DNA of 64,000 nucleotides from an uncultured Ignavibacteria bacterium (lineage in GTDB: Bacteria; Zixibacteria; MSB-5A5; WJJR01). Below the pieces are notes generated by a model. The model saw only the letters and a program-made list of their open reading frames with translations, was not told the DNA's origin and did not search any database. The first letter of the stretch is position 1. Every line of letters begins with the position of its first letter. This document shows, in pieces, positions 21,840 through 57,034 of this stretch. Where the stretch lies: assembly GCA_964371625.1 (NCBI GenBank), contig CAYJMP010000002.1, positions 197,034 through 261,033 of the forward strand, written 5' to 3'. A program made the translations under genes and the position numbers.

Positions 21840-23705
21840 TTGCTGACATTGTTTCTTAATCCGGCTGTTCTCTCGCTCGCGATCGACCTCATCCTGGGCC
21901 GCTTCGCGACATTCAATCTCGAGCAGAAATCATTCTACCTGCTCACACTGGCGGGGTCCACCGCCTGGTGGATGTTCCTCGCCTGGATTGTCCGCGCTCC
22001 CCTCACACGTCGCAATCAGATTCTCTCAACCGGCATCGCTCTTCTCTATGCGGTCACCTTCGTCCTCGTGTACGGATACCGCGCGACCACGGGCACGATG
22101 CCGAACTATTACACCTTCGAATACATCTTTGCGGAACCATTCAACAGCTGGACACTCTTGCGGGACACCTGGAGTTGGGTGTACACGCTGGCGATTCCCG
22201 TGGTAGCCCTGATCTTTTGGCTCGGGTTCACACGCTGGCGCGCTTACCTGGCCGCTCGCTGTCAGAAGCGACGGCACGCGGTCGTCGCCGGCGTGGCATT
22301 GTCTCTCGCCGTGATCATTCAGTTGGTGATTCACAACAACATCCGCTTCGTCGATCAGTGCTTCACTGCCGACATGACCGTGTCGACCAGCATCATGCGG
22401 AATTTCTATACGCGCTTCACTGACCCGAACGCCGGACGCAGCGGACTGGCGGCGCGGATGCCGATTGCCGTGCCGGAAATCCGTCCCGCAGAGGGCTCGC
22501 GTTCACCCAACCTGCTCGTCATTCTGACTGAATCGTTACGCGCCGATGCGCTGGGAATCTATGGGAGCTCCCGCCCCACAACACCGTTCCTCGATTCCCT
22601 CTGCAGAAATTATCCAGGGACGGTAGCACGATTCGACAACGCCTTCGCCTCGGCGACCATGACCTTTATCGCTGTGCCCACATTTGTGACCGGAGTATCG
22701 CCTTTGGCATCGGCGCTGACCTTGCACACACAGCCGACGTTTTGGGAGTACTGCAAGGCCGCTGGCTACGAGACTTTCTTCTTCACCTCGCAAAGCCAGG
22801 AATGGGAGAACATCAAAACATTCTTCACTATTCCCGCCATCGATCATCACTTCAATAAGGAGACCGTGGGCATCGGCGAGAAGAACGATCTCGGCATCGA
22901 CGATCACTATGTCGTTGACCACTTCATCTCGTGGCTCCAAAGTCGAAAGGAAAGCACGCCCTTCACCGGCATACTTCAACTCAATCAGACACATTATCCC
23001 TTTTGGACTCCCGACAGCCTGCGTCTCTTCGGCGAGACAGATCGCCGCGACCTTTACGACAACGCAGTCCGTTACACCGATGGCCAATTGCGGCGCGTCA
23101 TCACGGCCATCGCGATGCACGGAGAGTTGGACAACACCGTCATCGTCCTGACCTCCGACCACGGTGAGGCATTCAATGAGCATGGCATCTTCGGCCATCT
23201 GAACTGCCTCTACCGCGAAGGTATCCGCGTGCCCATGATTTTGTTTGTGCCGCCGATGGATGAGACCGATGGCCCGCGCTCTAAAGAGCTTGAGATTCTA
23301 ATCCGCAACACAGCAGCCGGCGTCAGCAATCTGGACGTTCTCCCCACACTGCTCGATTTCGCGGGAATCTGGAATGACTCACTGATCGCAGCAATTCGCA
23401 CGGGCATCGCTGGGTATTCCCTGCTTGAACCGCTGCCCACTGACCGGATCGTCGTCACCTCGAATCTGACCGAGATGACCCGCAATCACCTCGGCTTGTC
23501 GCTGGTGACCGGCAACTGGCACTACATCCTGAATCTGCAAGGCGAGAAAACTGGTGTTGAAGAACTGTATGACTGGGAACACGACCCGGCTGAAGCAAAC
23601 AACGTCATCACGAGTATTCCTCCGGATCTTCGACTACGCCTCGACCAATACCTGGCATCCTACCCTGTCTCCCAACGAATTAGGAAGTCACTTCCTCCGG
23701 GCTAA
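21840..23705 (+). CDS. Membrane-anchored sulfatase-fold (alkaline-phosphatase superfamily) protein, EptA/LtaS-like transferase
   Basis: N-terminal transmembrane helices followed by sulfatase-like domain (LVILTESLRADALGIYG, VLTSDHGEAFNEHG). Confidence 0.65.
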   Translation: MLTLFLNPAVLSLAIDLILGRFATFNLEQKSFYLLTLAGSTAWWMFLAWIVRAPLTRRNQILSTGIALLYAVTFVLVYGYRATTGTMPNYYTFEYIFAEPFNSWTLLRDTWSWVYTLAIPVVALIFWLGFTRWRAYLAARCQKRRHAVVAGVALSLAVIIQLVIHNNIRFVDQCFTADMTVSTSIMRNFYTRFTDPNAGRSGLAARMPIAVPEIRPAEGSRSPNLLVILTESLRADALGIYGSSRPTTPFLDSLCRNYPGTVARFDNAFASATMTFIAVPTFVTGVSPLASALTLHTQPTFWEYCKAAGYETFFFTSQSQEWENIKTFFTIPAIDHHFNKETVGIGEKNDLGIDDHYVVDHFISWLQSRKESTPFTGILQLNQTHYPFWTPDSLRLFGETDRRDLYDNAVRYTDGQLRRVITAIAMHGELDNTVIVLTSDHGEAFNEHGIFGHLNCLYREGIRVPMILFVPPMDETDGPRSKELEILIRNTAAGVSNLDVLPTLLDFAGIWNDSLIAAIRTGIAGYSLLEPLPTDRIVVTSNLTEMTRNHLGLSLVTGNWHYILNLQGEKTGVEELYDWEHDPAEANNVITSIPPDLRLRLDQYLASYPVSQRIRKSLPPG

Positions 23706-23715
23706 CGCGAAGAAT

Positions 23716-23782
23716 CGTTATTGCGAGGAGAGAGGCGTTTTTATCGCCGACCGACGCTTGTCCGCCGCGGCGGGAAGCAATC
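23716..23782. repeat. Dispersed intergenic palindromic element, copy E (longer core)
   Basis: cgttattgcgagg ... ggaagcaatc termini with GC-rich palindromic core (gtccgccgcggcgg). Confidence 0.6.
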
Positions 23783-23919
23783 TCTGTTCAGCGGACCGCC
23801 CCGCCCTCTTGCCCGGCGCCCTAACATTTCCTATTTTGCGTACGACTCACATCCAGTTTGGGTGGCCCTGATCCGCCGCGGCGGATTAGGGCAAGCGAAG
23901 CGAGCAGACCGACATTTCC

Positions 23920-24915
23920 ATGCAGACAATCTCCCTCAGACCTAAGCAGATCGCCCGTGGCCTCCGTACGGCCTTGGACCCGGCGCGTCCCATGCTGGCC
24001 CAGATCGTCGTCACGCGCAAATGCAACCTCGACTGCGGCTACTGCAACGAATTCGATAAGATCTCGCAACCGGTCCCGACCGAGACTCTCTATCAGTACA
24101 TCGATCACTTGGCCGACCTCGGCACCCAGGTCATCACCTTCACCGGCGGCGAACCGCTCCTGCATCCCGAACTCGACAAACTCGTCGCGCGCGTGAACTC
24201 GCACAGCATGGTGTGCACTTCGATCACAAACGGGTTTCTGCTGACCAAGGAGTGGGTCGAGAAACTCAATGATGCGGGCTTGTATCTCCTGCAGGTGTCG
24301 GTGGACAACCTCGAGCCGAGCGATCTATCCCAGAAGTCATTCAACCTGCTGAAGAAGAAACTGCCGTTGCTCACGCAATACGCCCGCTTCAATGTGAACA
24401 TCAACGCCGTCCTCGGCTCCTCCCCGGTCGCCGAGACCCGCGAACTCGCCCGTCAGATTCGCGAAATGGGCTTCTACATGACCGTCGGCCTTTTGCACTC
24501 CGGCGATGGCTCGCTTGATCGCGGCCTGCTCGAACACAAAGACCTCGAACCGCTCTACAAAGAAATGTCGGGGGACCGCCGCCGCAAACTCCTGCACCGT
24601 TTCGGCGAGGGCTGGGAATACGACATGATCCGCAACGGCGAGTCCGACTGGAAATGCCGCGCCGGCGCCCGTTATCTCTACATCGACGAGTTCGGCATCG
24701 TGAGCTATTGCTCCCAACGCCGCAACGACCCCGGCATTCATCTATTGGAATACTCGAAGGACCACCTGCGCCGCTTCTCGACCACGCGCAAAGGCTGCGA
24801 ACTCACCTGCACTGTGGCGTGCGTAAGACGCGCCTCGAGCGTGGATGTCTGGCGCAGTCAAGAAGCGGAACCGACGCCGACCCCGGACATCGAGGCCGCG
24901 CCGGCGATTTCCTAA
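23920..24915 (+). CDS. Radical SAM protein
   Basis: CNLDCGYC (Cx3Cx2C) cluster motif near N-terminus; additional C-terminal Cys cluster (GCELTCTVAC). Confidence 0.75.
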   Translation: MQTISLRPKQIARGLRTALDPARPMLAQIVVTRKCNLDCGYCNEFDKISQPVPTETLYQYIDHLADLGTQVITFTGGEPLLHPELDKLVARVNSHSMVCTSITNGFLLTKEWVEKLNDAGLYLLQVSVDNLEPSDLSQKSFNLLKKKLPLLTQYARFNVNINAVLGSSPVAETRELARQIREMGFYMTVGLLHSGDGSLDRGLLEHKDLEPLYKEMSGDRRRKLLHRFGEGWEYDMIRNGESDWKCRAGARYLYIDEFGIVSYCSQRRNDPGIHLLEYSKDHLRRFSTTRKGCELTCTVACVRRASSVDVWRSQEAEPTPTPDIEAAPAIS

Positions 24916-25459: not shown

Positions 25460-26074
25460 ATGCACAAAGCCATCGTGGCCGTCAGCATGGCAACATTGAT
25501 CCTGGCCGCAGGATGCAATACCGAAGAGAAGCGTCTGGAAGGTGAATTGACGCTGGCCAATTCGCGGATCGCCGAATTGGAGCAGTCGATTCAGCAGACG
25601 GGGCAGCGCGCCGACTCGCTCTCCGGCACTCTCTCTGTCGTCGAGCAAAACGCCCAACGTATTCGCGACAGTCTGAACAATTCGCGTGAGGAGCTAAGCG
25701 ACGCCGTCGTCAAGGCCCAGCGTGTTGAAGCCCGCTTGCAGAATGAACGCAATATGCATCGCAAGTCCGTCGACAGCCTCAATCAGGTGCGTGTCACTCT
25801 CGAAGGCACCGTCGCGGAGCGAGAGGCAACAATCGGCGGGCTCGAGTCGCAGCTCACGCTGACCCAGGCAGAAGCCGATCGCCTGAAAGGCCAGAAAGAC
25901 AGCCTCCTGGCCTTTGTCGATGATCTCAAGCCGTGGTACGATTACTACAAGAAGGATTCAGGCCGTAACTGGGCCAAGAAGCTTTTCGGCGCCGGACGCG
26001 CCACCAAGCCAACGACCCCGGAACCGGTCTTCCAGCCGCGTGTCGAGCCAGATCTGGAGGCGCAAAAACCGTAG
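25460..26074 (+). CDS. Coiled-coil lipoprotein, function unknown
   Basis: Signal peptide with lipobox LAAGC; heptad-like Q/E/R-rich sequence; AAGGGAG RBS. Confidence 0.6.
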   Translation: MHKAIVAVSMATLILAAGCNTEEKRLEGELTLANSRIAELEQSIQQTGQRADSLSGTLSVVEQNAQRIRDSLNNSREELSDAVVKAQRVEARLQNERNMHRKSVDSLNQVRVTLEGTVAEREATIGGLESQLTLTQAEADRLKGQKDSLLAFVDDLKPWYDYYKKDSGRNWAKKLFGAGRATKPTTPEPVFQPRVEPDLEAQKP

Positions 26075-26247: not shown

Positions 26248-26278
26248 GGCGTGGTTGGAAAGTCCCGGCGATCGACGT

Positions 26279-27370
26279 TTAATGCGCGCAGGGATAATCC
26301 ATGCAATCGATTTCGACATCATAAGCCGGTACGGTCGTGATCGACGGGTTCTTCGCCGGATCGACCGTCCATGACGTCATTCCATACTTCAGCGCCACAG
26401 CATCGTAGCCCAGAATATTAAGCGCCATGGTCGCGTAGCTGGCGGTGTGACCGGTGTAGCAGATCACCACGATCTGTTTGTCGGTCGGAAGCTTGGCAAG
26501 ATTCGCAGGGTCGGCCACGGTCTTCCAGGCAATATTCACCGCGCCGACGACATGAGTGGCGGCGTAGTCTGTAGAGCCACGGGCATCGAGAATGAACGGG
26601 TCATTGGCGGCGTTGCCGTCGTTGAGATTGTTGTACAGTGTCATCGACGAAATCGTCGGCGCTGCACCGGAGGAGAGGTAGGCATCGGCCGCCGCGCGGA
26701 CAATCTCCACATCATCGGACGACGTTGTGTTCTCGACCGTCGGAAGTGTGTGGGTCCCGGGTGTCACGGCTTCGGTGCTGATCGGATAATCGCCGCAGTC
26801 CACTTCGGAATCATAGACCGGGTTCGATGTAATCCATGGGAAATAAGTCGGGTCGACGGTCCATGAGGTCATACCGAATTTCATCGCCTTCGCCTTGATG
26901 TACCCTATCGATCCGAGGTACGCCGCGCTCTGGCATGCGGTGTGCCCTGTGTAGCAGACCACCACGATCTCTTTCTCCTTGTCAGTCGGCAATGAACTCT
27001 GATTGGAGGCCTTTGCGATTTCACGGAACGGGATGTTGACCGAACCGGGGACATGGCCGGCGGTGAAATCACTGGTGCCGCGAACATCAAGCACGAACGG
27101 GTCATTGGCCGCGTTGCCGTCGTTCAGGTTGTTGTAAAGTGCGGCGGCGGTCATTGTGGCTGTGGCGCCGGTGAAGTACGCTTCGACGGCATCGGAGATA
27201 ACGTCGAATTCCGACACGGTCGGGCCGGTCGTCTCGTCATCATCCGAGCATCCGACCGCGATCAGCATCGCCAAGGCTACCAGTCCGATTCCCACCATCC
27301 GCATCCATTTGCTTGTACTTTGGTGCATACGATCCTCCTTCGTAGGTTCGCTTGATTCGACTCCTGTCAT
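26279..27370 (-). CDS. Tandem-rhodanese-domain lipoprotein (sulfurtransferase, Sud-like)
   Basis: Two rhodanese modules each with active-site CYTGHT; lipobox AVGCS; start overlaps cytochrome stop in ATGA (27367-27370), though the real start may be an internal Met. Confidence 0.75.
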   Translation of the reverse strand: MTGVESSEPTKEDRMHQSTSKWMRMVGIGLVALAMLIAVGCSDDDETTGPTVSEFDVISDAVEAYFTGATATMTAAALYNNLNDGNAANDPFVLDVRGTSDFTAGHVPGSVNIPFREIAKASNQSSLPTDKEKEIVVVCYTGHTACQSAAYLGSIGYIKAKAMKFGMTSWTVDPTYFPWITSNPVYDSEVDCGDYPISTEAVTPGTHTLPTVENTTSSDDVEIVRAAADAYLSSGAAPTISSMTLYNNLNDGNAANDPFILDARGSTDYAATHVVGAVNIAWKTVADPANLAKLPTDKQIVVICYTGHTASYATMALNILGYDAVALKYGMTSWTVDPAKNPSITTVPAYDVEIDCMDYPCAH

Positions 27371-28695
27371 TCATCCCACGGCACCGGTCCATCGGGCACG
27401 ATGACCCCGGCGTTGGCTTCGATTTCATAGTCCCGCAAGTCGGCCGCTCGCAAAAAGAGGGTTTCGCTGTTGTGGCACACGGCCGAGCAGTTCCCCGTAC
27501 CGGCTGAGTCCGTCTGCGGTGTGTTGCGGCGAATGTTGTGCGGCGACGCGTATTTCCACGTTGGCAAAACATCGAAATCGTTCAGTGCGAGGCCCCAGTC
27601 AGCAAACGTGTTCGGGTCAACCGGCGCATGGCGCAGGGCCACGTAGCTGTAGCCACGCTTGGTCGGTAGAGGATTGCGCCCGATTTTGATTCCCAAGCTC
27701 GACGGCTCCTGCAGTCCCTCGCCGGCATGGCAACTGTAACAGTTCTTGTATTCCTGCGCGTGACAGGCTTGGCATTGCACATCCGTCCAATGTTGCGTAT
27801 GCCAAATGTTGGCCGAGGCATCGTCAGTGTGACAATTCTCGCAACGCGGCATCTCCACGACATCGTAACGCTTGTCGTAACCGCGCCCGTCGGCGTGCAT
27901 CTCAGAGCCCGTGTGGCAGGCGAGACACGACATCGCATTTGGATTCCAGTGGACATCGGCTTTGTATCCGGCGCGTGAACCCAGATACTCCTCGCCGACA
28001 CGGCTCCCATGGCAGGCGGTGCAGTTATTGAAGAGCGATGGTGTGCGCACCACGGCATGACCGGCAAGGAACCCGCCGCCCACGCTGGCGGGACGCGAGA
28101 TATGACATTGGCCGCAACTCGTGTGACACTTGGCGCATTGCGATTGGTACTTATCCTTGTAACTCGGCGAGTTCGGATCGAAGGCGCCGCCTGAACGCGC
28201 GCCGATCATGGACAAATACCCGCTCTGGTTGGAGTGCACTGATGTGGAGTCATTGCCGACGATACCGCCATGACACTCGCTGCAGATACCGGTCGCCGCA
28301 TCCGAAGGATGGGTGACGAGCCCTTCATGTGCCCCTTCTTTTGATTCAGCGTTCTTGTTTCCCGCATGGCACCCAGCGCATCCGACAGAGTTGTGGACGT
28401 TATCGATAAACTCCGCCTGGCTGACCATGACCCGTTCCCATACCTCCAACGGAGGTACCGATCCACCTCACCCTTCGCCCGGCTCATCGCCGCCACTTCC
28501 TGTGTCGGGTTCCGCGGTCGCAACCAGCTGATCCTTGCTGGTGTGACAGCCAACACAACTGCCCCCGCGCGCACTCGATAATCCCAGATCTCGTTCGGTG
28601 GCGCAGCCGGCCAACAACAGCACGAGAAGCGCCAACCCGGGCATCCATGTCATGAGAGGATTCCCGCGCGTGAAATCAGACAATTTGTGATTCAT
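27367..28695 (-). CDS. Lipoprotein multihaem cytochrome c (~10 CxxCH) interrupted by a single in-frame TGA at 28468-28470 (recoded, pseudogene or sequence error)
   Basis: Upstream ORF (GGAGGA RBS, signal peptide + LLAGC lipobox, CVGCH) and downstream ORF (nine CxxCH, no signal peptide) are in the same frame separated only by TGA; continuous reading ...DEPGEG-TGA-GGSVPPLEVWERV... Confidence 0.6.
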
Positions 28696-28760: not shown

Positions 28761-28780
28761 ATTGTCATAAATTGTCACAA
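28761..28780. promoter_or_regulatory. Tandem 10-bp direct repeat attgtcaNaa x2 in divergent promoter region
   Basis: attgtcataa attgtcacaa in the AT-rich region between the cytochrome operon (minus) and purU (plus). Confidence 0.25.
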
Positions 28781-46159: not shown

Positions 46160-47551
46160 CTAATCTTTTGGATGCGGGACCGGGGAACTGGCGCGAGCGC
46201 CGGAATGCGGGATGCGACCGATCCGCTCTTGCGCGTCCTCGTCCGAGCGGTCGCCTTTCCCGCCAAACTTGATCCCGGCACTCCGCAGCATCTCGAACGG
46301 TGGCAACCCGCCGATGAGAACGAAGATGTAATCATTGGGAATGGTGAATTCTCCATCCCGGGAGCGGATTTCAACGTCGGCGGCGCTGATTCTCCGGACT
46401 TCTGAATCGAAGACGGCTTTGACCTTGCCGCGATCGATCAACTCACGAATCTTGTCCTCATTCTTCTTTTTCACGCGTGCAAATGTGCTTTTGCGATAGG
46501 ATATCCAGACGGTGTTCCCCGGCTGGCGGGCCAGACCGATCGCCGCCTCGACAGCACTGTCCCCGCCCCCGACCACGAGGAGATTCTGACCATTATACGA
46601 TCGGGCGTCGACCAACTGGTACATCACCTTCGAATGATCTTCCCCTTCGACACCGAGTTTGCGGGGAGTTCCGCGACGCCCCAGACCGAGAACGACTCTT
46701 CGTGATCGATAGATACCGGCACTGGTGATCACACGGAAGATCGGCCCCTCTTTCGAAACGTCGTCGACACGCTCTCTGGCACGGATCTGAATCCCGAATT
46801 TCTCGACGATCCCATTCCAGATTTCCAACAGTTCTTCCTTGGAATATTCTGACCTTTTCAGCCAACCGTAGAGCGGAATCTCCACGGGTTGAGTCATAAC
46901 CAGTTTGCGGTGTGGATAATGAAGTATCGTCCCACCGACCTGGGTTTGGTCGATCACGAGGTAATTCAACTTGTTCTCTATGGCCGTCAGAGCGGCCGAA
47001 AGCCCCGCAGGGCCGGAGCCGATGATGATGACATCGTACGCATCCTGCGACGCTTCGTTCGCAAGTTGTCCGGCGATGGCGTTCATCGCCTTGCGCCCTT
47101 GTGAGATCGCATTCCGAATGAGTGACAGGCCGCCGAGCTCTCCGACGATGTACAGACCCGGAACACTCGTTTCGTAGTCACGCGAGAGAATCGGTATGTC
47201 TTCCCGGTCACGCGTATCCCCGAGTCCGACAACGAGCGCGCCGACCGGACAGGCGCGTTCGCAATTGCCATGACCGACGCAACGTATTCCGTTAATGACC
47301 ATCGCCGTTCCATAGACGACGTCGAGCACATCGCCCTCCGGACACGCCGTCACGCAGCCGCCGCAGCCGATGCACAGACCCGGATCAATGAATGGGTACT
47401 GTCCTCGCGGTTTCTCGATTCCCGCCTGTAGCGCTTCGTGCTTGCGTCGCCATGCTACCCGTTGCTGCCGATGGAACTTGAAGGCGTATGGCAATACCAC
47501 CAATACGCCCAAACCGATGGCAACAGACCATATGAGCAGCGATTCAGACAT
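46160..47551 (-). CDS. Membrane-anchored ferredoxin-domain / FAD-dependent pyridine nucleotide oxidoreductase
   Basis: N-terminal TM helix; two 4Fe-4S motifs CIGCGGCVTACP and CVGHGNCERACP; FAD/NAD(P) folds IIGSGPAGLSAA and VVGGGDSAVE. Confidence 0.7.
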   Translation of the reverse strand: MSESLLIWSVAIGLGVLVVLPYAFKFHRQQRVAWRRKHEALQAGIEKPRGQYPFIDPGLCIGCGGCVTACPEGDVLDVVYGTAMVINGIRCVGHGNCERACPVGALVVGLGDTRDREDIPILSRDYETSVPGLYIVGELGGLSLIRNAISQGRKAMNAIAGQLANEASQDAYDVIIIGSGPAGLSAALTAIENKLNYLVIDQTQVGGTILHYPHRKLVMTQPVEIPLYGWLKRSEYSKEELLEIWNGIVEKFGIQIRARERVDDVSKEGPIFRVITSAGIYRSRRVVLGLGRRGTPRKLGVEGEDHSKVMYQLVDARSYNGQNLLVVGGGDSAVEAAIGLARQPGNTVWISYRKSTFARVKKKNEDKIRELIDRGKVKAVFDSEVRRISAADVEIRSRDGEFTIPNDYIFVLIGGLPPFEMLRSAGIKFGGKGDRSDEDAQERIGRIPHSGARASSPVPHPKD

Positions 47552-47566: not shown

Positions 47567-49198
47567 TTAGAATTGCAGGCTCATTCCCGCTTCCAACCTG
47601 TGCCCGCGCGTGTCGTCCCCGCCACTCAACTGACCGAGAGCATTGAGCGCGAGTGCCTGGGTAATTCCAACCCGGACTGTCAGATCCGCGCGTCGATTCA
47701 GACGGGCGTCGGAATTGCCTGCGAGAGTGTAACTGTACAGTCCCGCGCCAAGGCTGATCCAGTCGCGTTGACCAACACCCTGTCCCAAGGATGCGTTGAG
47801 ATTGTAACCGGAGGTGGCATCGCTCACGAAACGGACCCCCTGCACGCTGAAACTGCTCTTGGGGTTGAAAAGACCCTGCTTGCGCACGGCGCCATTGTAT
47901 GAGGTTGTCCGGTCCTGCTCTCCTTCCACTGAACGCACACCCGCACCGGCGGACAGATAGATCCCTTCCGGCAAGGCAAGATCGAATTGCGTCCGGACAC
48001 CCTGACGCACACGATCATCAAAGATGCTGTCGGCGATATCACGCGTCTCGTAGGTCCGGTAGCTCTTACGTGTGTCGTAGGACACCGACGCGGTGAGACT
48101 GCGCGTGAGATTCACCCGCCCCTGTGCGTAGATCGTCGAGAGACTGATTGACTGACTGTTTTCACTCTTGCGCCAGCCGCGATTGACATCAAGCTCGAGG
48201 CTGTGACTGAGGTTCCAACGGCCATTGCGTGCCATGCGGCCTTGGGCGAACAGCGCCTCGCGGCTCGCCGTCCCGCCATGGTACTGCCCGACGACGGAAA
48301 ACGTCTGATCCAGCAGGAAGTCGCGCGCCGACCCGCGCCGGTAACCAGCATACGCGCCGTAAGTCTGAAGATTCGGGCGATTCTCTGCGTACTGCCATTG
48401 CGAATTGGCTCCACCGAAAATCCCGATGCGCGCGAATTGCGAAACACGATACTCAATGGAACCGCCATCCAGCCGGCCGATGGCGCCCACGCGTGCTGGA
48501 TTGATTCGACCCATCGACATCCCTGCCCGCGAACCTTCGGGTTTGTACTCCAAAACGAAAGTCGCAATGCGACTCTCCCAAGAGTTCTCACGACCATCAT
48601 CACTGGGAACAACACGGCGATCCCGTCTCCCCGACGTTCGAAGGGCGAATGACAGCCCCGGCGTCCAGAGTGGCTCGACGCGGAGATCGATATCGACCCG
48701 CCCCTGGCCGAAATCCAGCCCGGCATCGCTGTGATCGTCCCAGTTGCTGTACATCATCGCAATTGAGCCAGATGCCTCCGGATGGATCGCCGGACCATCA
48801 TTGACGCGGGATTCGACGGGATCTACTCGTTGAATCTGGGAGAGCGCTTCTGCGGTTGACTGGGGAGCTGGTTCGGAGGTATCTGGCACGGCACGAAGCT
48901 CAACGTTGAGCTTGACGACATCACCTACCGATAGACTCACAACGGGTTCAGGCATCCGGCACGCCGAAGAGTGTTCTGCCAGATGGAGCACCTCGAGTTC
49001 GGCGATTTTCTGATCGTCACGGAATACCACGGGTCTCGCCCCGACAAACAGTCCTTCCGCCCTGCCCCCATTCAGATACACCAGGTCCGCGGAAACAAAT
49101 GTCACCTTGAGCACACGCTCGATGGTTTCCGCGCAGACCACAGACGCAGACAACAGGAGTATCGCGACGCAAATCGAGACGGCGACAAGAGATCTCAC
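47567..49198 (-). CDS. Outer-membrane beta-barrel protein (putative porin partner of the cytochromes)
   Basis: Signal peptide; alternating aromatic/hydrophilic beta-strand pattern; C-terminal ...GMSLQF with terminal Phe; GTG start overlaps cytochrome stop (GTGA). Confidence 0.6.
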   Translation of the reverse strand: MRSLVAVSICVAILLLSASVVCAETIERVLKVTFVSADLVYLNGGRAEGLFVGARPVVFRDDQKIAELEVLHLAEHSSACRMPEPVVSLSVGDVVKLNVELRAVPDTSEPAPQSTAEALSQIQRVDPVESRVNDGPAIHPEASGSIAMMYSNWDDHSDAGLDFGQGRVDIDLRVEPLWTPGLSFALRTSGRRDRRVVPSDDGRENSWESRIATFVLEYKPEGSRAGMSMGRINPARVGAIGRLDGGSIEYRVSQFARIGIFGGANSQWQYAENRPNLQTYGAYAGYRRGSARDFLLDQTFSVVGQYHGGTASREALFAQGRMARNGRWNLSHSLELDVNRGWRKSENSQSISLSTIYAQGRVNLTRSLTASVSYDTRKSYRTYETRDIADSIFDDRVRQGVRTQFDLALPEGIYLSAGAGVRSVEGEQDRTTSYNGAVRKQGLFNPKSSFSVQGVRFVSDATSGYNLNASLGQGVGQRDWISLGAGLYSYTLAGNSDARLNRRADLTVRVGITQALALNALGQLSGGDDTRGHRLEAGMSLQF

Positions 49199-52100
49199 TC
49201 GTCCCCCCGCGGGTGGCAGCTATAACACGCTGCGCTGAGGTACTGATACCCGTTTACTTCGTTGTGGTCGTCGTCCGTGTCAGTCCTGTTGTGCTCGTGG
49301 CAGAGGATGCACTCGAAGGTGGCGAAACTGGCCGAGTTGACGTGGCAGTCGGCGCAGTCATTCCACTTGTCTTTGTGTTTACCTGAGTAGATCGGGAAGT
49401 ATTGCGAATCGTGATTCCAATTGGCCGGAGTCCAGGCGGTCGTCGTATGGCATGTCTGGCACGTTGTCGGAAATCCTGCCGCCGCGTGATCGGGCGTCGC
49501 CGTGCTGTAATCGCTGCTGTGGCAGGCGAAGCACTCCGAGGACGTCCCGCTGTACCCTGATGCGTGGCAACTGTTGCACGTCACGGTCCGATGCGCACCG
49601 GTCAGCGGGAACCCCGTCTGATTGTGATCATAGGTCGCGGGTGTCCATGCGGTCGTCGTATGACACACTGTGCACTGAGTCGAGAAACCCGCGGTCACGT
49701 GATTGGGATCGGTGACACCGGTGTAATCGCTTTCATGACACGCCAGACATGCGGTCGGAGTGCCTGAGTACCCGATCGAGTGGCAGCTGTTGCATGTCAC
49801 CGTGATATGCGCGCCGGTCAATGGGAACGCGGACTGATTGTGATCGAATGACGCCGGTGTCCAGCCGCTCGTTGTGTGACACTGTTCGCAGAGTGTCGGG
49901 AAACCCGAGCTGACGTGATTCGGATCACTCGCTCCGGTGAAATCATCATGATGACAAGCATCGCATGCCGATGGCGTCCCGGTGTATCCCGCTGCGTGAC
50001 AGCTCGCGCAGGTCGTCGATGTGTGCGCTCCCGTCAACGGAAATCCGCTCAGGTTGTGATCGAAGGACGATGGTGTCCAAGCCGTCGTCGTGTGACACTG
50101 CTCACAGAGAGTTGGAAATCCCCCGGTGACGTGATTGGGGTCGGTGACTCCCGAATAATCACTCGAGTGGCAGGCGTAACACGCAGATGATGTTCCCGCG
50201 AATCCGGTTGAATGACAGCTGTTGCAGGTCACGCTCTGATGCGCTCCGGTCAGCGTGAATCCGGTCTGCGTGTGTGACCACGTCGATGGGTCCCAACTCG
50301 ACGTGTTGTGGCATTGCGTGCAGGTGGTCGAGAACCCCGCCGCCGTGTGATTGGGATCGGTGACGCCAGTGAAGTCGGCATGATGGCAGGCATCGCACTC
50401 GGTTGGTGTTCCCGTATATCCACTCGCGTGGCAACTGACGCATGTGACCGAGCGATGTGCTCCGGTCAACGCGAATCCACTGAGATTGTGATCGAAGGAT
50501 GATGGTGTCCACGCCGTCGTCGTGTGGCATTGCTCACAGAGTGTGGGGAATCCTCCGGAGACGTGGTTGGGGTCGGTGACCCCGGTGTAGTCGCTTGCGT
50601 GACAGGCGTAGCACGCCGCGGCAGTCCCCGCGAAGCCGGTGGAATGACAACTGTTACACGTGACACTTTGATGTGCTCCGGTCAGTGTGAACCCGGTTTG
50701 CGTATGCGACCAACTCGACGGGTCCCAATTCGACGTGCTATGGCACTGCACGCAGTTCGTGGAGAATGCCGCCAATGAGTGATTGGGATCGGACGCGCCG
50801 GTGAAATCACTGTGGTGACAGGCATCGCACTGCGTCGGTGTCCCGGTGTACCCACTCGCGTGACACTTGACGCATGTGATCGTCCGGTGTGCACCGGTCA
50901 GGGCGAATCCGGTTAAGTTATGATCCAATGTCGCAGGCGTCCAGCCGGCGGAAGTATGGCATTGGGCACAGGCTGTTGAGAATCCTGCGCTGATGTGATT
51001 CGGGTCGATCACGGCCAGGTAATCGGCGTGATGGCAGGCATCGCATTGCGTTGGTGTGCCCGCATACCCGGATGTATGACAGCTCGCACAGGAAACCGCG
51101 GTGTGTAGTCCTGTCAGTGCAAAACCTGTGGTGCTGTGGTTGAAAGTCGCCGGCTCCCAGGCAGACGTTCCATGGCATTGCGCGCAGTCGGTCGGAAAAC
51201 CCGAATGAGAGGGATCGTCCGCTTGCGTGAAATCGGTCTCATGGCAGGCGATGCACGCCGAGGCTGTCCCCGTGTACCCGGTCGTGTGGCATTGATTGCA
51301 CGCCACCGCCAAGTGCGCGCCGGTCAATGGGAATCCGGTCAGGTTATGATCGAGAGTCGCCGGCTCCCATGCCGCGGTTGTGTGGCATTGTGTGCATTCG
51401 GTCGGAAACCCGTTCGCTGCGTGACCCGGGTCGTCCGTGTTGGTGTAATCGGATTCATGGCAAGCGAAGCAGGCCGACGGTGTCCCGGTATACCCTGAGG
51501 CATGGCAATTATTACAGCTGACAGAGACGTGAGCGCCCGTGAGCGGGAATCCTGTCAGATTGTGATCGAGAGTGGCAGGAGTCCACGCCGTCGTGGTGTG
51601 GCACTGAGTGCACTCGGTTCCAAAACCGGCCGCCACGTGGTCCGGATCATCGACACCTGTGTAATCCGGCTCATGACAGGCGAGGCAGGCTGACGGTGTA
51701 CCCGTGAATCCCGAGGTATGGCAATTGTTGCATGAGACAGCGATATGGGCGCCAGTCAACGGGAAGTCGGATAGATTGTGATCCCAATCGGCCGTCTCCC
51801 ACGCCGACGTCGCGTGACATGTCGCACAGTCTGTAGAGAAATGCGAACCGTCATGATCGGGGTCGGCGGCGCCTGTGTAGTCAGTGGCATGGCAGGCATA
51901 GCATAGAGTCGAAGTTCCGGTGAAACCTGATTGGTGACAATCGTTACAGGCCGCAGCCACATGCGCACCCGTCAACGGGAAATCCGTCAGGTCGTGATCA
52001 ATGTCGGCCGGCTCCCATGCGGATGTCGTGTGACACTCCGCGCACTCGGTGGAGAAATCCGAAGCGACGTGATTGGGATCGACCGCCCCAGTGAAATCAC

Positions 52101-54321
52101 TCTGGTGGCACGCCAGGCATTCCGATGATGTACCGGTGTAGCCCGATGTGTGACAATTCTCGCACGTCACTGAGACATGCGCGCCCGTTAACGGGAAGGC
52201 CGTCAGATCGTGATCGAGATTGGCCGGTTTCCAAGCCGATGTCGTGTGACAGAGGGCGCACTCCGTCGGGAACCCCGCCGCCGCATGATCCGGATCCGGA
52301 GCCGCAGCATAATCGCTGCTGTGGCACGCATTGCATGTCAATTCTGTCCCCGTATATCCACTCGTGTGGCAATTCTCGCAAGTGACGCTCACATGCGCAC
52401 CCGTGAGCGGGAATCCGGTCAGGTTGTGATCGAGATTGGCCGGATCCCACGCCGAAGTGGTATGGCACTGCGCGCATTTTGTCGGGAAGCCGGCGGTGAC
52501 GTGATTGGGATCGGCCGCCAGCATGTAGTCGCTTTCATGGCATGCCACGCACTCGGATTGAGTTCCAGTGTATCCCGAAGCGTGGCAGTTCACACAGGAC
52601 ACTGCCGCGTGCGCGCCCGTCAGTGAGAACCCCGTGAGATCGTGATCAAGATTCGCCGGTGTCCAGGCCTCGGTCGTGTGACATTCCGAGCATTCAGTCG
52701 AGAATCCGGCAGCCGCATGATCCGGGTCGGGTGCGTTGGCATAGTCGTCACCGTGGCATGCGAGGCACGTGGACTGCGCTCCTGTGTACCCGCTGGCGTG
52801 GCAATTCTCGCACGTCACGCTCGCGTGGGCGCCGGTGAGCGGAAATCCCGTGAGATCATGATCGAGATTGGCCGGCCGCCAGCCTGCTGTTGTGTGGCAT
52901 TGCGTGCATTCAGTTGAGAATCCCGCCGTGACGTGGTTGGGATCTGCTGCTGTTGTGTAGTCCCCTTCATGGCAGGCAACACACGCAGTTGCCGTCCCCG
53001 TGAAACCCTCCGAATGGCAATTGTTGCAGGTCACCTCGACATGCACCCCGGTCAGCGGGAACCCAGTCATGTCGTGATCGAGATTCGCCGGAGTCCAACC
53101 GGATGTCGAATGGCACCCGGCGCACTCAGTTGAAAACCCTGCCGCGAGATGGTTCGGATCTGGCGTCGTACTATAATCGTTTTCATGGCAAGCGTAGCAG
53201 TCCGACGACGTGCCAGTATATCCTGATGTATGGCAGTTTTCGCAAGTGACGGCGACGTGTGCCCCGGTGAGCGGGAAATGTGTCAGGTCGTGATCGAGAT
53301 TCGCCGGCGCCCAGTCCTCCGTGCTATGGCAGAGCACACACTCCGTAGGGAATCCGGCCGTCTGGTGATTCGGATCTTCGGCGGTCGCGTAGTCGCTCTC
53401 ATGACAACCCGCACAGGTCGAAGCCGTGCCGGAGAATCCTTCAGTATGGCAACTGTTGCATGTCACCTCGACATGCGCACCCGTGAGCGGAAACGTCGTC
53501 AGATTATGATCGAGTTCGGCCGGAATCCAGGCAACCGTGGTGTGGCACTGGACACACTGTGTCGCAAATCCCGCTGTCACATGGTCCGGGTCGGGTGTCT
53601 CGCGGAACTCAGTTTCATGACAGGCAAAGCAGTCGGTCGAGGTGCCAGCAAATGCGGTCGCATGGCAACTATTGCATGACAAGGCCGCGTGTGCGTTTGT
53701 GAGTGGAAATGTCGCTGGGTGATCGTATACCGCGCTCGCCCAAGTGAGCGCTCCCGCTCCATGACACGACTCGCATTCCTGTGAGAATCCCGCCAAAGCA
53801 TGCTCGGGATTCGTGGCAGCCTGATAGTCGCCACTGTGGCATGAGGCGCATGCCGTCGAAGTCCCCGCGTATTCGCGCGGCATCTGATTCACATGGCAAG
53901 CGCCGCAATCGGCGATGGCGTGCGCGCCGGTAAGCGCGAAGCCCTTCTGCGCATGTTGTTCGAAGACTTCGCGATTGTTCTTCCAGTTTTCCGGGGTGTG
54001 GCAGGTTTGGCACTCGGTCCCTAGCTGGCCGCGATGGACATCGGCGTGGCAATCGGCGCAGGCCGATGCGGTCTCCACAAATTTGAGATCCTGGTGGCAG
54101 GTCGCGCACCGCGTCTTGGCGTGGACTCCAACCAGCGGAAAGCCCGTCTCCCCATGCGCAAATCCCGATGGCTGACGCATGTCCGTCCATGACTTCATCG
54201 TGTGGCACTGCTGACAATCCCAACGAATCTCCCCGTGCGGATTCAGGATCATCGTCTGTGCCGCCACGCTGACACAGAGGAGAGCAACCAGGACAGCTGC
54301 GAGGGCAAGAGTGCGCTTCAT
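49195..54321 (-). CDS. Giant multihaem cytochrome c (~70 CxxCH motifs by manual count)
   Basis: Signal peptide MKRTLALAAVLVALLCVSVAAQ; about 20 tandem ~56-aa modules each carrying three CxxCH; start ATG overlaps upstream cytochrome stop (ATGA at 54318-54321). Confidence 0.85.
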   Translation of the reverse strand: MKRTLALAAVLVALLCVSVAAQTMILNPHGEIRWDCQQCHTMKSWTDMRQPSGFAHGETGFPLVGVHAKTRCATCHQDLKFVETASACADCHADVHRGQLGTECQTCHTPENWKNNREVFEQHAQKGFALTGAHAIADCGACHVNQMPREYAGTSTACASCHSGDYQAATNPEHALAGFSQECESCHGAGALTWASAVYDHPATFPLTNAHAALSCNSCHATAFAGTSTDCFACHETEFRETPDPDHVTAGFATQCVQCHTTVAWIPAELDHNLTTFPLTGAHVEVTCNSCHTEGFSGTASTCAGCHESDYATAEDPNHQTAGFPTECVLCHSTEDWAPANLDHDLTHFPLTGAHVAVTCENCHTSGYTGTSSDCYACHENDYSTTPDPNHLAAGFSTECAGCHSTSGWTPANLDHDMTGFPLTGVHVEVTCNNCHSEGFTGTATACVACHEGDYTTAADPNHVTAGFSTECTQCHTTAGWRPANLDHDLTGFPLTGAHASVTCENCHASGYTGAQSTCLACHGDDYANAPDPDHAAAGFSTECSECHTTEAWTPANLDHDLTGFSLTGAHAAVSCVNCHASGYTGTQSECVACHESDYMLAADPNHVTAGFPTKCAQCHTTSAWDPANLDHNLTGFPLTGAHVSVTCENCHTSGYTGTELTCNACHSSDYAAAPDPDHAAAGFPTECALCHTTSAWKPANLDHDLTAFPLTGAHVSVTCENCHTSGYTGTSSECLACHQSDFTGAVDPNHVASDFSTECAECHTTSAWEPADIDHDLTDFPLTGAHVAAACNDCHQSGFTGTSTLCYACHATDYTGAADPDHDGSHFSTDCATCHATSAWETADWDHNLSDFPLTGAHIAVSCNNCHTSGFTGTPSACLACHEPDYTGVDDPDHVAAGFGTECTQCHTTTAWTPATLDHNLTGFPLTGAHVSVSCNNCHASGYTGTPSACFACHESDYTNTDDPGHAANGFPTECTQCHTTAAWEPATLDHNLTGFPLTGAHLAVACNQCHTTGYTGTASACIACHETDFTQADDPSHSGFPTDCAQCHGTSAWEPATFNHSTTGFALTGLHTAVSCASCHTSGYAGTPTQCDACHHADYLAVIDPNHISAGFSTACAQCHTSAGWTPATLDHNLTGFALTGAHRTITCVKCHASGYTGTPTQCDACHHSDFTGASDPNHSLAAFSTNCVQCHSTSNWDPSSWSHTQTGFTLTGAHQSVTCNSCHSTGFAGTAAACYACHASDYTGVTDPNHVSGGFPTLCEQCHTTTAWTPSSFDHNLSGFALTGAHRSVTCVSCHASGYTGTPTECDACHHADFTGVTDPNHTAAGFSTTCTQCHNTSSWDPSTWSHTQTGFTLTGAHQSVTCNSCHSTGFAGTSSACYACHSSDYSGVTDPNHVTGGFPTLCEQCHTTTAWTPSSFDHNLSGFPLTGAHTSTTCASCHAAGYTGTPSACDACHHDDFTGASDPNHVSSGFPTLCEQCHTTSGWTPASFDHNQSAFPLTGAHITVTCNSCHSIGYSGTPTACLACHESDYTGVTDPNHVTAGFSTQCTVCHTTTAWTPATYDHNQTGFPLTGAHRTVTCNSCHASGYSGTSSECFACHSSDYSTATPDHAAAGFPTTCQTCHTTTAWTPANWNHDSQYFPIYSGKHKDKWNDCADCHVNSASFATFECILCHEHNRTDTDDDHNEVNGYQYLSAACYSCHPRGDE

Positions 54322-56003
54322 GGCGTCGCCCCCTTGGCTGTCACACTGTCTGTCCCGTGGCAGGCGCGACAACTCCTGTCATCAATATGATAGTCCACAA
54401 ACGCGAAAGCGGCGTCCTGGGTGGGCTTATGACAGCCAGCGCAAGGCACCTTGGCGTGCGCGCCGTCGAGCGGGTATTCAGTTAGCTTGTTGTGATCAAA
54501 GAGCGTGGCCTGCCAATTTGAAGGCGTGTGGCAGCGGTCGCATCGGATTTGTGGCACCGTATCGGCAACCGCAAACTGACCACGGTGCACATCGCGGTGG
54601 CACATCTCGCAATCACGACGCAACGGTGCGAACGCAAGCCGGGCAATGTCCACGGCATTCGAATCGCCGCGGTGGCATGATGCGCAATTGACAGACGCAT
54701 GCTTTCCCGTCAAGGCGAAACCAGTGCTGTCGTGCGCAAACACAACCGCGGACCAGCTTGCTTCCGAATGACATTCTTGGCACCCGGAGCGCTCGACGAT
54801 CCGTGCTAACTGACCCTTGTGGACATCCTTGTGACAATCCTGACAGCGCATTGACGACCACGTGTAATGCCCCTCACGCGCCACCATGTTTCCTTTAGCA
54901 TCGCCATGGCACTGAACACACGGCAAGGCCAAGTGCGCCTGGCGTAACGTGAATCGCGTGGCCTTATGTTGTTCGATGGTGAATTGTGCAGGCATATACC
55001 CGGCGACAGTGTGGCACTCTTCACACGCGCCGCCCTGCGCCCGGTCGGCGAACTCGCCTTTGTGATGGTCCTGATGACAATCACGACAGGCTTGGAATTT
55101 CAGGCCGCTCTTGGGTTTGCCAGCCGCATGGCATTTGTCGCAGGCAACTATCCTGTGACGTCCTTCCAGCGGATAACGGGTTTTGCTGTGATCGAATCCC
55201 GCTTGCTCCGCGACCTGCCACCCTGTCGTCGTATGGCATCCCTCGCACCGCGATCCGAGACGCCCCGCGTGGGAATCCTTATGGCAGTTGCTGCAATTCT
55301 CGTGTCGCACATTGGCAAAACGCGAGTACTCGTGATCGGTCGTCGAACTCGGATCTTCGACTTTCTGATGACATTTGGCGCAGGCCGTCGTCTCGTGGCG
55401 GCCGGTCAGAACGAACTTCGTCCGGTCATGATCGAACCCAGGCGCCGGTGACCATCCCTCAAATGTGTGACAGCGATTACAGTCCGAAGCCAGCTGGCCA
55501 CGGTGCTCGTCGAAATGACAGGACGCACAACTCGTATCCAAACCGAGGTAAGTCTTGGAGAGGTCTTTCTGTCGGAGTCGGAGCTGCTCGCTATCCCGAT
55601 TGAAGTCGGTCTTGTGGCAGGCACGGCACGTCGTCTTCGCATGCTTTCCTTGAAGCGGGTAGCCTGCAAGTTGGTGATCGAAACCCTTTTCACCGGCCTT
55701 CCAGTAGATCAAGTCGAAATCACGCCCATGGTGTTCCACGTGGCAGTTCTCACATTCCCGATACTCGGCCTGCGCGTGCAACCCGCGTCCGCGATCGATG
55801 CGCGCCTGCATCTCGGTGTGACAGCTGAGACACTTGCCGTGCATCTGATCCGAATCCCGATCATGGCACTTGTTGCAGTTCTCGACACCGTCCAAAAAGG
55901 CGTGGGAACGATGCAGATCGCCCGGCGACAGTTGCGCGTTCGCTCTTTGGCAGAGTGTGGCCATCATGATAAATCCGACGATCTGTGCCAGCCCGCGAGG
56001 CAT
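54318..56003 (-). CDS. Multihaem cytochrome c (~20 CxxCH motifs)
   Basis: Internal ATG with signal peptide MPRGLAQIVGFIMMATLCQRANA; about 20 CxxCH counted. Confidence 0.85.
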   Translation of the reverse strand: MPRGLAQIVGFIMMATLCQRANAQLSPGDLHRSHAFLDGVENCNKCHDRDSDQMHGKCLSCHTEMQARIDRGRGLHAQAEYRECENCHVEHHGRDFDLIYWKAGEKGFDHQLAGYPLQGKHAKTTCRACHKTDFNRDSEQLRLRQKDLSKTYLGLDTSCASCHFDEHRGQLASDCNRCHTFEGWSPAPGFDHDRTKFVLTGRHETTACAKCHQKVEDPSSTTDHEYSRFANVRHENCSNCHKDSHAGRLGSRCEGCHTTTGWQVAEQAGFDHSKTRYPLEGRHRIVACDKCHAAGKPKSGLKFQACRDCHQDHHKGEFADRAQGGACEECHTVAGYMPAQFTIEQHKATRFTLRQAHLALPCVQCHGDAKGNMVAREGHYTWSSMRCQDCHKDVHKGQLARIVERSGCQECHSEASWSAVVFAHDSTGFALTGKHASVNCASCHRGDSNAVDIARLAFAPLRRDCEMCHRDVHRGQFAVADTVPQIRCDRCHTPSNWQATLFDHNKLTEYPLDGAHAKVPCAGCHKPTQDAAFAFVDYHIDDRSCRACHGTDSVTAKGATP

Positions 56004-56011
56004 GATGAAGA

Positions 56012-57034
56012 TCAGGACATCCAGCCATAGCCGGTCCAAACGGCCACGACAATGTGTATTCCCATCACGAGGTACATGACGATCGCGAAGGGTTTGTGGA
56101 ACACGTGCCAGTAATGGAACAACCGCTGCATCTGATGCCACACTTGAATGCGGCGATCCAGGAGCGTGATCTGCGCGACGACGTCATTCAACTGCGAGAT
56201 CTGGTTGTGACTACGTCCCCCGGAATTCGCGGATTCGATGGCTCGGCGACGCCGCAAGAGCTGCTTCAAGTCATCAACGACGATCCACGCGAGCGAACGC
56301 CACGCGCCTTCGCTGGCTTCCACCTCGCGCGATTGCTCCAAGTGCGCTACGGCCGACTCCGAAAGTCCGAATTCCGACTTCAAGACACCGCGCAGGCGAT
56401 TCCGTGATTGATGGACCTCTTCCAACGTCATCTGGTCGCCGCGCAGATTGCGCGGAATCTGAGAATACAGATACCGTCCCAGGACTCCGCTGACGGCAAC
56501 GCAGACCATGGACCAGAAGGCGACGGCCACCAATCCCTGAACTTTGAACGAAGTGTGCAGTACGATCAAAAGCGGCCCGACAACTCCGAAGTAGATGTGG
56601 ACGTCAAGCCAGTATGGAAGTGCGCCCCAGCGCGACAGTCCCTGGAAGCGCTTCCGCACCGTGTACCCGAGCATCAGCACCATCATTGATGCGCCGACGA
56701 TACCAAAGAGCAACCCGCGTGATCCGGCGGGACGCAGCTCGCGATAATCGGCGTGATGCGGACGCTCCGCATACGGAGTGGAATAATACGAGTACCCGTC
56801 GAGGAAGAGCGCCAGCCAGATCGCAATCGAGACCGTGTACGCGATAGTCTTCCAGCGAAGCCGCCGACGCGCATTGTGGACAGAAGTTGTCTCGCCCTTT
56901 TCCGCCAGTGGAGCCGACGGAAATGTGGTCACTTCTTGTACAACTTCCGAGTTCAACCCCTGCACAGGCAGTCCCCTGAATGGCTGTGGACAATCGGAGT
57001 CACCGTCGACGGTGACAACACCCGGACACCACAT
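56012..57034 (-). CDS. Integral membrane protein, possible dihaem cytochrome b-type subunit; start uncertain
   Basis: Four or more TM helices with paired His (LDVHIYFGVVGPLLIVLHTSF; HYWHVFHKPFAIVMYLVMGIHIV); 8 bp upstream of the 20-haem cytochrome. Confidence 0.45.
   Translation of the reverse strand: MWCPGVVTVDGDSDCPQPFRGLPVQGLNSEVVQEVTTFPSAPLAEKGETTSVHNARRRLRWKTIAYTVSIAIWLALFLDGYSYYSTPYAERPHHADYRELRPAGSRGLLFGIVGASMMVLMLGYTVRKRFQGLSRWGALPYWLDVHIYFGVVGPLLIVLHTSFKVQGLVAVAFWSMVCVAVSGVLGRYLYSQIPRNLRGDQMTLEEVHQSRNRLRGVLKSEFGLSESAVAHLEQSREVEASEGAWRSLAWIVVDDLKQLLRRRRAIESANSGGRSHNQISQLNDVVAQITLLDRRIQVWHQMQRLFHYWHVFHKPFAIVMYLVMGIHIVVAVWTGYGWMS

Follow-up and report, generated by a model that had tools for sequence, protein, structure and literature searches.

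A probable selenoprotein cytochrome encoded beside a tandem-rhodanese lipoprotein, and a possible molybdenum-independent route to sulfur reduction

The closest described systems

The nearest described precedent for the locus considered here is MccSep (ExtKL, GSU2937-2936) of Geobacter sulfurreducens, a selenocysteine (Sec)-dependent polysulfide (and selenite) reductase whose genes accompany that of the rhodanese lipoprotein ExtH (PMC13510729). Here, we analyze a gene pair in a 64,000-nt stretch of DNA from an uncultured Ignavibacteria bacterium (the window; all coordinates are window positions), in which the gene for a multihaem cytochrome is followed, adjacent and head to tail on the minus strand, by the gene for a lipoprotein with two rhodanese domains. 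The cytochrome gene contains an in-frame TGA which, judging from codon comparison among species and from the fold and covariation of a hairpin behind it, is very probably read as Sec. The cytochrome apparently represents an undescribed selenoprotein family.

MccSep and the window cytochrome are alike as periplasmic multihaem c-type cytochromes with one UGA codon for Sec (putative in the window) and a hairpin of the selenocysteine insertion sequence (SECIS) kind, and both have historically been annotated as two open reading frames (ORFs). Each is encoded alongside a rhodanese-family lipoprotein, and some relatives of the window pair adjoin a putative porin and cytochromes. There is, however, no detectable homology between them: the ExtKL and ExtH models (NF040886 and NF040901) were unmatched, and searches of the PDB returned no MccSep-like chain. 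MccSep has five haems, whereas the window cytochrome has 11. The Sec of MccSep (in the motif DGUP) lies near the C-terminus, within an Ig-like domain, whereas that of the window cytochrome would be the 76th of 442 residues, in an N-terminal arm rich in Gly; and MccSep is a soluble tetramer, whereas the window cytochrome is a predicted lipoprotein. The ranges differ as well, MccSep being found mainly in Desulfobacterota and Nitrospirota, and the window family in Chloroflexota, Calditrichota, KSB1, Eisenbacteria, Firmicutes and others, in at least 595 species and in habitats that include sediments, aquifers, soda lakes and bioreactors. An earlier, sequence-only reading of this stretch did not recognize the arrangement as a described system. 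There is nevertheless some precedent for it: ExtH with ExtKL/MccSep makes up an analogous, non-homologous system built of unrelated proteins (PMC13510729, PMC5877670).

The octahaem tetrathionate reductase (OTR) of Shewanella oneidensis (1SP3, TIGR04315) is likewise a periplasmic multihaem enzyme that acts on S-S bonds. It has eight haems against the 11 motifs of the family studied here, TIGR04315 was unmatched by 18 of 18 members, and the window cytochrome adds an N-terminal haem-plus-Sec module, a lipoprotein anchor and a rhodanese partner. Mowat et al. are said to have shown in 2004 that the active haem of OTR is ligated by lysine (the haem-2 ligand); our family alignments contain no invariant Lys to match it. 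The Sud/PsrABC system of Wolinella succinogenes resembles the scheme proposed here for the window pair, in that a periplasmic protein of the rhodanese type brings sulfane sulfur to a respiratory reductase linked to the membrane. Psr, however, is a molybdopterin enzyme with an NrfD-type anchor and Sud a soluble single-domain protein, whereas the window reductase would be built on haem and Sec, and its rhodanese is a two-domain lipoprotein in which both Cys are retained. The FeS (iron-sulfur) plus cytochrome b quinol module of PhsABC (Salmonella) and FdnHI (Escherichia coli) is of the same kind as one found beside relatives of the pair in Desulfitibacter and Dehalococcoidia, but there the Sec cytochrome and rhodanese replace the molybdopterin subunit, and no such module lies beside the window pair. 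Finally, the octahaem sulfite reductase MccA/SirA and the His/Cys-haem enzymes TsdA and SoxAX are multihaem enzymes of sulfur metabolism in which a chalcogen residue stands at the active haem or close to it; searches of the PDB gave no significant match to MccA, TsdA or SoxAX chains.

No NCBIfam model was reached by the window cytochrome or by 18 full-length members of its family, and with these same proteins the models for ExtKL (NF040886), the GSU2204 family (NF041027) and OTR (TIGR04315) gave zero matches even at E<=1. These three are the cytochrome selenoprotein families listed in a 2026 review of the selenoproteome, which also records that some OTR-family members are annotated as selenoproteins in GenBank (PMC13188914). 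A keyword search of the review's family table found no entry matching the cytochrome family (PMC13188914), and we found no curated model or publication that describes the cytochrome-rhodanese system. The similarities seen in NCBIfam were weak and of a generic multihaem kind, at 15-25 bits against cutoffs of 200-800 (ExtN, ExtO, ExtM and ExtH). Assignment of the pair to MccSep/ExtKL, OTR (TIGR04315) or ExtH was rejected, the family models being unmatched. The only relative in the PDB was OTR (1sp3), and the match of a profile built from full-length members was limited to its central haems; the Sec position therefore cannot be equated with active-site residues of OTR. The haem core itself may be OTR-like. 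Since the family has 11 haem motifs and 10 conserved histidines outside them, one haem may be open or otherwise ligated.

The probable selenocysteine codon of the cytochrome

Relatives were sought among 5.8 billion proteins, with 655 found among the scored candidates, and in one genome per species of GTDB r232, in which at least 595 loci were confirmed and the DNA of the best 80 was read. In a library clustered at 50% identity, the family comprises 125 clusters at E<=1e-30. Nearly all database homologues are proteins of 350-370 aa that cover about 80% of the query and begin just after the TGA position. Three full-length homologues (P0011, P0095 and P0084) align over the whole length and have Cys at that position, in the contexts SGES-C-GGEV, PGEG-C-GGTV and GGGG-C-GGET, respectively; P0142, P0176, P0178 and P0192 are further proteins of the Cys type. 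Among the 80 loci read as DNA, the codon at this site is TGA in 75 (U-GG in 72 and U-AG in three), Cys in three (TGT in L004, TGC in L038 and L072) and neither in two. All 80 loci encode a lipoprotein signal and haem 1 in frame ahead of this codon, and in 75 of the 80 species both these features on the 5' side of the TGA and GGxVPP on its 3' side are conserved.

Two further observations bear on how the TGA is read. In the pair of Gly codons right behind it, the first and second positions never vary and the third is free, a pattern that lies ahead of any possible restart codon and therefore indicates that translation crosses the TGA. Downstream of the TGA, the gene encodes 10 haem motifs but no signal peptide; because attachment of c-type haem requires export, this part of the protein could not be exported and matured alone. 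Use of TGA as a general sense codon was excluded, the cytochrome gene itself ending in TGA.

When the TGA is read through, the gene starts at ATG 28695 with the Shine-Dalgarno sequence GGAGGA 8 nt upstream, and encodes a signal (MNHK...LLLAGC), the haem motif CVGCH, an acidic glycine-rich stretch and then the TGA (GEG-TGA-GGSVPP), after which the frame runs for 366 further codons to the stop. The product contains 10 CxxCH motifs and one CxxxCH. A mechanical ORF list breaks it into pieces of 96 and 360 aa, and public gene calls into pieces of 75 and 353 aa. The sequence-only reading saw the multihaem cytochrome correctly, and its coordinates cover the entire read-through gene, but it missed the in-frame TGA and the hairpin that follows. 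In RefSeq/GenBank, cytochromes of the Firmicutes are annotated as truncated hypothetical proteins (WP_028308718.1, MBS4021406.1).

The SECIS-like hairpin has an 8-bp stem and the apical loop G[U/G/C]U. Across 67 sequences, 85.8% of cells in the stem pair as Watson-Crick or GU, against 40-51% in slid registers, and the covariation score of 0.218 compares with 0.085 +/- 0.011 in shuffles, none of 500 of which reached it; at two pairs there are compensatory switches among GC, CG, AU and UA. The G and U of the loop are invariant, the G being the third base of a Pro codon, and they occupy positions 21 and 23 when the U of the UGA is counted as 1. This placing is close to the geometry of the E. coli fdhF SECIS (G23/U24). 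The same kind of hairpin occurs in members from the Firmicutes. It is absent from the Cys-type locus L072, and in the Cys-type clade (L038, L072, P0084 and P0142) the hairpin-forming codons for VPPLEAW are replaced by others that encode [TA]PHIE[PV]YDR. An Rfam scan of positions 26000-29000 returned nothing relevant and no matching family, and a search of the window for other genes split by TGA found none beyond noise. The Sec would sit in a glycine-rich arm (GEG-U-GG) between haem 1 and the haem core, and this arm is probably flexible.

The rhodanese partner and the gene neighbourhoods

As the sequence-only reading had stated, the second gene of the pair encodes a lipoprotein (lipobox IAVGC) with two rhodanese domains (Pfam Rhodanese, PF00581; E 5e-31, 107.5 bits against a cutoff of 22.2), each bearing CYTGHT. 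That reading had made its case depend on the recurrence of the pair in other genomes and on the conservation of the catalytic Cys, and both are borne out. A rhodanese homologue lies on the same strand as the cytochrome in 72 of the 80 loci (directly downstream in 48, directly upstream in 21 and one gene away in three), and these loci are drawn from many phyla. Eight loci have no rhodanese match; two of them have no room for one, and a third (L076) encodes a fusion. Such fusions, in which two rhodanese domains of the SseA/TST type follow the cytochrome at its C-terminus, were found in L076 (556-2475), P0148 and P0208, the last of which carries Tyr in place of Sec or Cys.

Both catalytic Cys are kept in 54 of 56 two-domain orthologues, with the loop consensus CYTG[HQ][TS], and the lipobox Cys is kept in 49 of the 56. 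Tandem rhodaneses seldom retain the catalytic Cys in both domains, and the residues present here suggest that both domains are catalytically competent. The number of domains varies, with one in some Desulfobacterota and three or four in some Anaerolineales. In a sequence search of the PDB at E<=1e-3, the nearest solved rhodaneses were thiosulfate sulfurtransferases, PspE and Uba4-type domains, with no Sud chain among the matches. The ExtH model NF040901 was not reached, the score being 21.3 bits against a cutoff of 200 over residues 19-113 only. Many of the cytochromes bear the JGI/IMG name "thiosulfate/3-mercaptopyruvate sulfurtransferase", though the rhodanese domain is absent from them. This label probably spread from the fused forms; it misled one genome description (PMC5609068), which was later corrected (PMC10376724).

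The stop of the cytochrome gene (27369..27367) does overlap an ATG (27370..27368) in the sequence ATGA, as the sequence-only reading reported when it proposed that the two genes are translationally coupled. A second ATG, at 27328, is preceded, 5 nt away, by the Shine-Dalgarno sequence AAGGAGGA and leads straight into the signal peptide, and the exact 349-aa product that starts there has been recorded by public gene calls on at least 23 contigs. For these reasons ATG 27328 is the better start and the overlapping ATG is probably not one, which leaves 38 nt between the genes and makes coupling through the overlap doubtful. The two genes are almost certainly co-transcribed as one operon. The lipoprotein signals of both proteins were judged by inspection. 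A promoter and terminator scan of the minus strand gave nothing useful, with no consensus promoter on that strand. A tandem 10-nt repeat, TTGTGACAAT TTATGACAAT, lies at 28761..28780 (-), about 65-85 nt 5' of ATG 28695, and might bind a regulator or belong to the promoter. The features of the pair are collected in Table 1.

Table 1. Positions of the gene pair and of its landmarks in the window
Feature	Position	Strand	Details
Cytochrome gene, TGA read through	27367..28695	-	442 aa: lipoprotein signal, haem 1, putative Sec76, haems 2-11; stop TGA 27369..27367
Cytochrome lipobox Cys31 (LLLAGC)	28603..28605	-	Cys invariant in 18 full-length relatives
Haem motif 1 (CVGCH), residues 47-51	28543..28557	-	C47, C50 and H51 invariant in full-length alignment; kept 5' of the TGA in related loci
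In-frame TGA, probable Sec residue 76 (GEG-U-GGSVP)	28468..28470	-	Codon comparison over 80 species genomes
SECIS-like hairpin GUACCUCC-GUU-GGAGGUAU	28440..28458	-	Fold and covariation; starts 12 nt after the U of UGA
Haem motifs 2-11 (CxxCH in nine, CSAVCH in the last)	27472..28380	-	Possibly tetrathionate-reductase-like core, and C-terminal strand-rich region
Tandem-rhodanese lipoprotein gene	26279..27328	-	349 aa; ATG 27328, alternative upstream ATG 27370; Pfam Rhodanese x2
Rhodanese lipobox Cys (IAVGC)	27248..27250	-	Conserved in 49/56 orthologues
Catalytic Cys, rhodanese domain 1 (CYTGHT)	26954..26956	-	Cys in 54/56 orthologues
Catalytic Cys, rhodanese domain 2 (CYTGHT)	26459..26461	-	Cys in 54/56 orthologues

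In the window, the pair stands alone among housekeeping genes, with purU, DinB and a pyridine-nucleotide-disulfide oxidoreductase on one flank, and a coiled-coil lipoprotein, a radical S-adenosylmethionine (SAM) protein and a sulfatase-family protein on the other. On this second flank, 21840..24915 (+) encodes a 621-aa sulfatase-family membrane protein (PF00884) and then a 331-aa radical SAM protein ending at 24915, their Pfam labels being taken from the identical public contig L081. The radical SAM ORF lies about 1.4 kb beyond the rhodanese gene, and the 204-aa coiled-coil lipoprotein (25460..26074, +; no Pfam match) lies between them. Two very large multihaem cytochromes are encoded about 20 kb from the pair. 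One is an ORF of 1725 aa (49195..54372, -) with about 70 CxxCH/CxxxCH motifs, and the other, adjoining it, is an ORF of 607 aa (54318..56141, -) with about 20 motifs; on their 3' side they are followed by an ORF of 543 aa (47567..49198) and, beyond it, by one of 463 aa that has a 4Fe-4S motif (46160..47551). The two large cytochromes (together 49195..56141) may supply or accept electrons for the pair.

Across genomes, only the cytochrome-rhodanese pair is universal, and its other neighbours vary by lineage. In the Dehalococcoidia, the order is rhodanese, Sec cytochrome, Fer4_11 FeS protein and Ni_hydr_CYTB cytochrome b; in the cultured Desulfitibacter alkalitolerans (GCA_000620305.1), it is Sec cytochrome, rhodanese, Fer4_11 FeS protein and Ni_hydr_CYTB cytochrome b. 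The Fer4_11 protein is of the four-cluster type, with a signal like that of the twin-arginine translocation (TAT) pathway and a C-terminal helix. In locus L083 (3932-12850), the split Sec cytochrome and its rhodanese belong to a longer operon that also encodes a 413-aa protein without a Pfam match, three additional multihaem cytochromes and, at 871 aa, a fusion of a multihaem cytochrome with cytochrome b; a sigma-54 activator that has LMWPc and PAS domains lies upstream. Calditrichia loci add MtrC/MtrF-like cytochromes and a protein of 395-414 aa without a Pfam match, possibly an outer-membrane barrel. These recurrent neighbours point to respiration. No sox, dsr or sqr genes are linked to the pair in the loci examined. 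The Firmicutes pairs are flanked by a regulator of about 255 aa with repeated HTH_3/XRE-type domains on the opposite strand, placed divergently upstream in L087 (D. alkalitolerans KK211102.1) and 3' of the rhodanese in L085 and L086 (Dethiobacter sp.).

Dethiobacter alkaliphilus AHT1 respires thiosulfate and sulfur/polysulfide, yet has neither psr nor dsr (PMC5609068, PMC10376724). Its cytochrome DealDRAFT_1917, with 10 CxxCH motifs and neither a signal peptide nor a transmembrane segment, is 98% identical to OMD50_RS07060 of strain Z-1002 (about 39 kDa), adjoins the rhodanese DealDRAFT_1918 and was earlier mislabelled as a thiosulfate sulfurtransferase. It was the only SirA/Otr-like cytochrome reliably upregulated on thiosulfate as compared with ferrihydrite (PMC10376724, PMC5609068). 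The Dethiobacter cytochrome was reported to be a weak homologue of SirA, at 22% identity (PMC10376724), and selenocysteine is not mentioned in the published accounts of it (PMC10376724, PMC5609068). As published, these features of DealDRAFT_1917 agree exactly with the truncated form of the family described here, of which it is a probable orthologue. A protein from a metagenome-assembled genome of Dethiobacter sp., MBS4021406.1, carries the same JGI label and is a verified member of the family: its locus has an upstream ORF of 68-71 aa, an in-frame TGA (GGGG-U-GVAGPQL) with a hairpin after it, 10 CxxCH motifs after the TGA and an adjoining rhodanese.

Proposed function and alternatives

We propose that the pair is a membrane-anchored, periplasm-facing module that would act as a molybdenum-independent selenium/haem reductase for sulfane sulfur or thiosulfate, a reading that we hold with evenly balanced confidence; what it acts on, which way its electrons flow and what Sec does in it are inferred. 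According to this model, the rhodanese cysteines would take up sulfane sulfur as persulfide, either from thiosulfate, with release of sulfite, or from polysulfide. The selenolate on the Gly-rich arm would then attack the rhodanese-bound sulfur, or free substrate, to give a Se-S adduct, which electrons from the haem chain would cleave reductively, so that sulfide leaves and both proteins are regenerated. The electrons would come from the quinol pool through other carriers, encoded next door in other lineages and not adjacent to the pair in the window. By analogy, such a mechanism would parallel both the model for MccSep and the swinging GCUG arm of thioredoxin reductase. The sequence-only reading had pictured a rhodanese-to-cytochrome relay for thiosulfate or polysulfide. 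The conserved pairing and the conserved Cys support such a relay, but the cytochrome would be a candidate catalytic selenoenzyme in it rather than a simple electron carrier.

Several points weigh against the proposed reductase. No quinol dehydrogenase adjoins the pair in the window, and FeS plus cytochrome b modules such as those found in other lineages can run in either direction. The 64-kb window contains no selA, selB, selD or tRNA-Sec, its sole tRNA being tRNA-Gln. In an AlphaFold model of the full-length Cys homologue P0011, the Sec/Cys loop has a predicted local distance difference test score (pLDDT) below 50, and no Sec-to-haem geometry is derivable. The membership of DealDRAFT_1917 in the family is inferred from its published description, not from its sequence. 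Finally, in distant full-length relatives the Sec position is occupied by W, R, H or Y, or has no alignable counterpart; Sec or Cys is therefore not essential across the wider family and marks its main clade. Among these variants are Trp in P0150 and P0155, His in P0162, and Arg in P0174 and L002, with L017 listed alongside. TGG and CGA are each one mutation from TGA, and the Trp cases could be gene calls made under a code that reads TGA as Trp.

The alternative that survives best, although we consider it unlikely, is that the same Sec pair works oxidatively or reversibly, in the manner of TsdA or of a tetrathionate reductase run backwards, so that thiosulfate, sulfide or sulfane sulfur is oxidized and electrons pass to quinone or, through multihaem cytochromes, to extracellular acceptors. 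Tetrathionate reductase, a possible fold relative of the cytochrome, catalyzes the thiosulfate/tetrathionate couple, and FdnHI-type FeS plus cytochrome b modules also serve dehydrogenases; the giant multihaem cytochromes 20 kb away in the window, and the MtrC/MtrF-like cytochromes with a candidate outer-membrane barrel in some loci, would provide an outlet for the electrons. However, the Dethiobacter protein, the probable orthologue, rises during thiosulfate reduction, the one characterized Sec multihaem enzyme, MccSep, is a reductase, and sox, dsr and sqr are not linked to the pair in the loci examined.

A role in selenium metabolism seems slightly less probable again. Here, the rhodanese would bind selenium and the Sec cytochrome would reduce selenite, for detoxification or respiration, as part of a selenite/tellurite reductase or selenium-handling module. 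Selenite is also a substrate of MccSep, and ExtI/ExtH have been implicated in selenite uptake and reduction (PMC13510729, PMC5877670). The sole NCBIfam matches of the family, far below cutoff, are indeed to proteins of the Geobacter selenite/tellurite operon, but their low scores reflect generic multihaem similarity. Moreover, the family occurs widely in species of sediments and aquifers, where selenite is scarce, and MccSep itself has a sevenfold preference for polysulfide (PMC13510729).

It is also improbable that the cytochrome is a non-catalytic electron carrier of extracellular conduits, with Sec as an accessory redox or ligand residue and with a rhodanese that is unrelated or chaperone-like. 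The MtrC/MtrF-like and Geobacter-type multihaem cytochromes and the putative porin that stand beside the pair in some lineages could be taken in this sense, as could the existence of relatives without Sec or Cys, and ExtHIJKL was initially reported to be an outer-membrane conduit (PMC6148476). Yet the retention of a costly Sec codon and SECIS in 75 of 80 species argues for catalysis, while sulfur chemistry is indicated by the strict pairing with a rhodanese, by the fusions and by the presence of a catalytic Cys in both rhodanese domains; and in the monoderm Firmicutes, the pair stands alone or with a quinol module only. That there is no recoding at all, the TGA being a true stop between a small monohaem lipoprotein and a separate 10-haem protein, or the locus a pseudogene or assembly error, is very improbable: gene callers and RefSeq do annotate two ORFs or a truncated protein, and the machinery for Sec was not seen in the window, but the TGA stands at the same codon in 75 independent species with Cys in others, conservation of the coding type runs straight across it ahead of any start codon, the downstream ORF lacks the signal peptide needed for export and c-type haem, the hairpin covaries, and the identical sequence has been assembled on at least 23 contigs.

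More tentatively, and with less than even confidence, we suggest that the cytochromes form an unrecognized selenoprotein family of many phyla, with 11 haems, a tetrathionate-reductase-like fold and a flexible G-U-G-G arm to which sulfane sulfur is fed by a dedicated two-site rhodanese; that they may be the missing molybdenum-independent thiosulfate/sulfur reductase of Dethiobacter-type anaerobes that are without Psr, Phs and Dsr; and that they may constitute a second independent haem-plus-selenium route to S-S reduction beside MccSep. If this is true, a class of respiratory enzyme has been mis-annotated, in at least 595 species genomes, as a tiny ORF and a signal-less "hypothetical" protein or "thiosulfate sulfurtransferase". 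The prokaryotic selenoproteome would gain a new family, and a second, non-homologous case of haem-plus-selenium sulfur reduction would be added soon after MccSep was characterized. The pair is a candidate answer to how Dethiobacter-type organisms without molybdoenzymes or Dsr respire thiosulfate and sulfur, and this capacity would be overlooked in metagenome surveys of the sulfur cycle whose markers are limited to psr, phs, dsr and sox. The cultured carriers Desulfitibacter alkalitolerans and, probably, Dethiobacter alkaliphilus make the idea directly testable.

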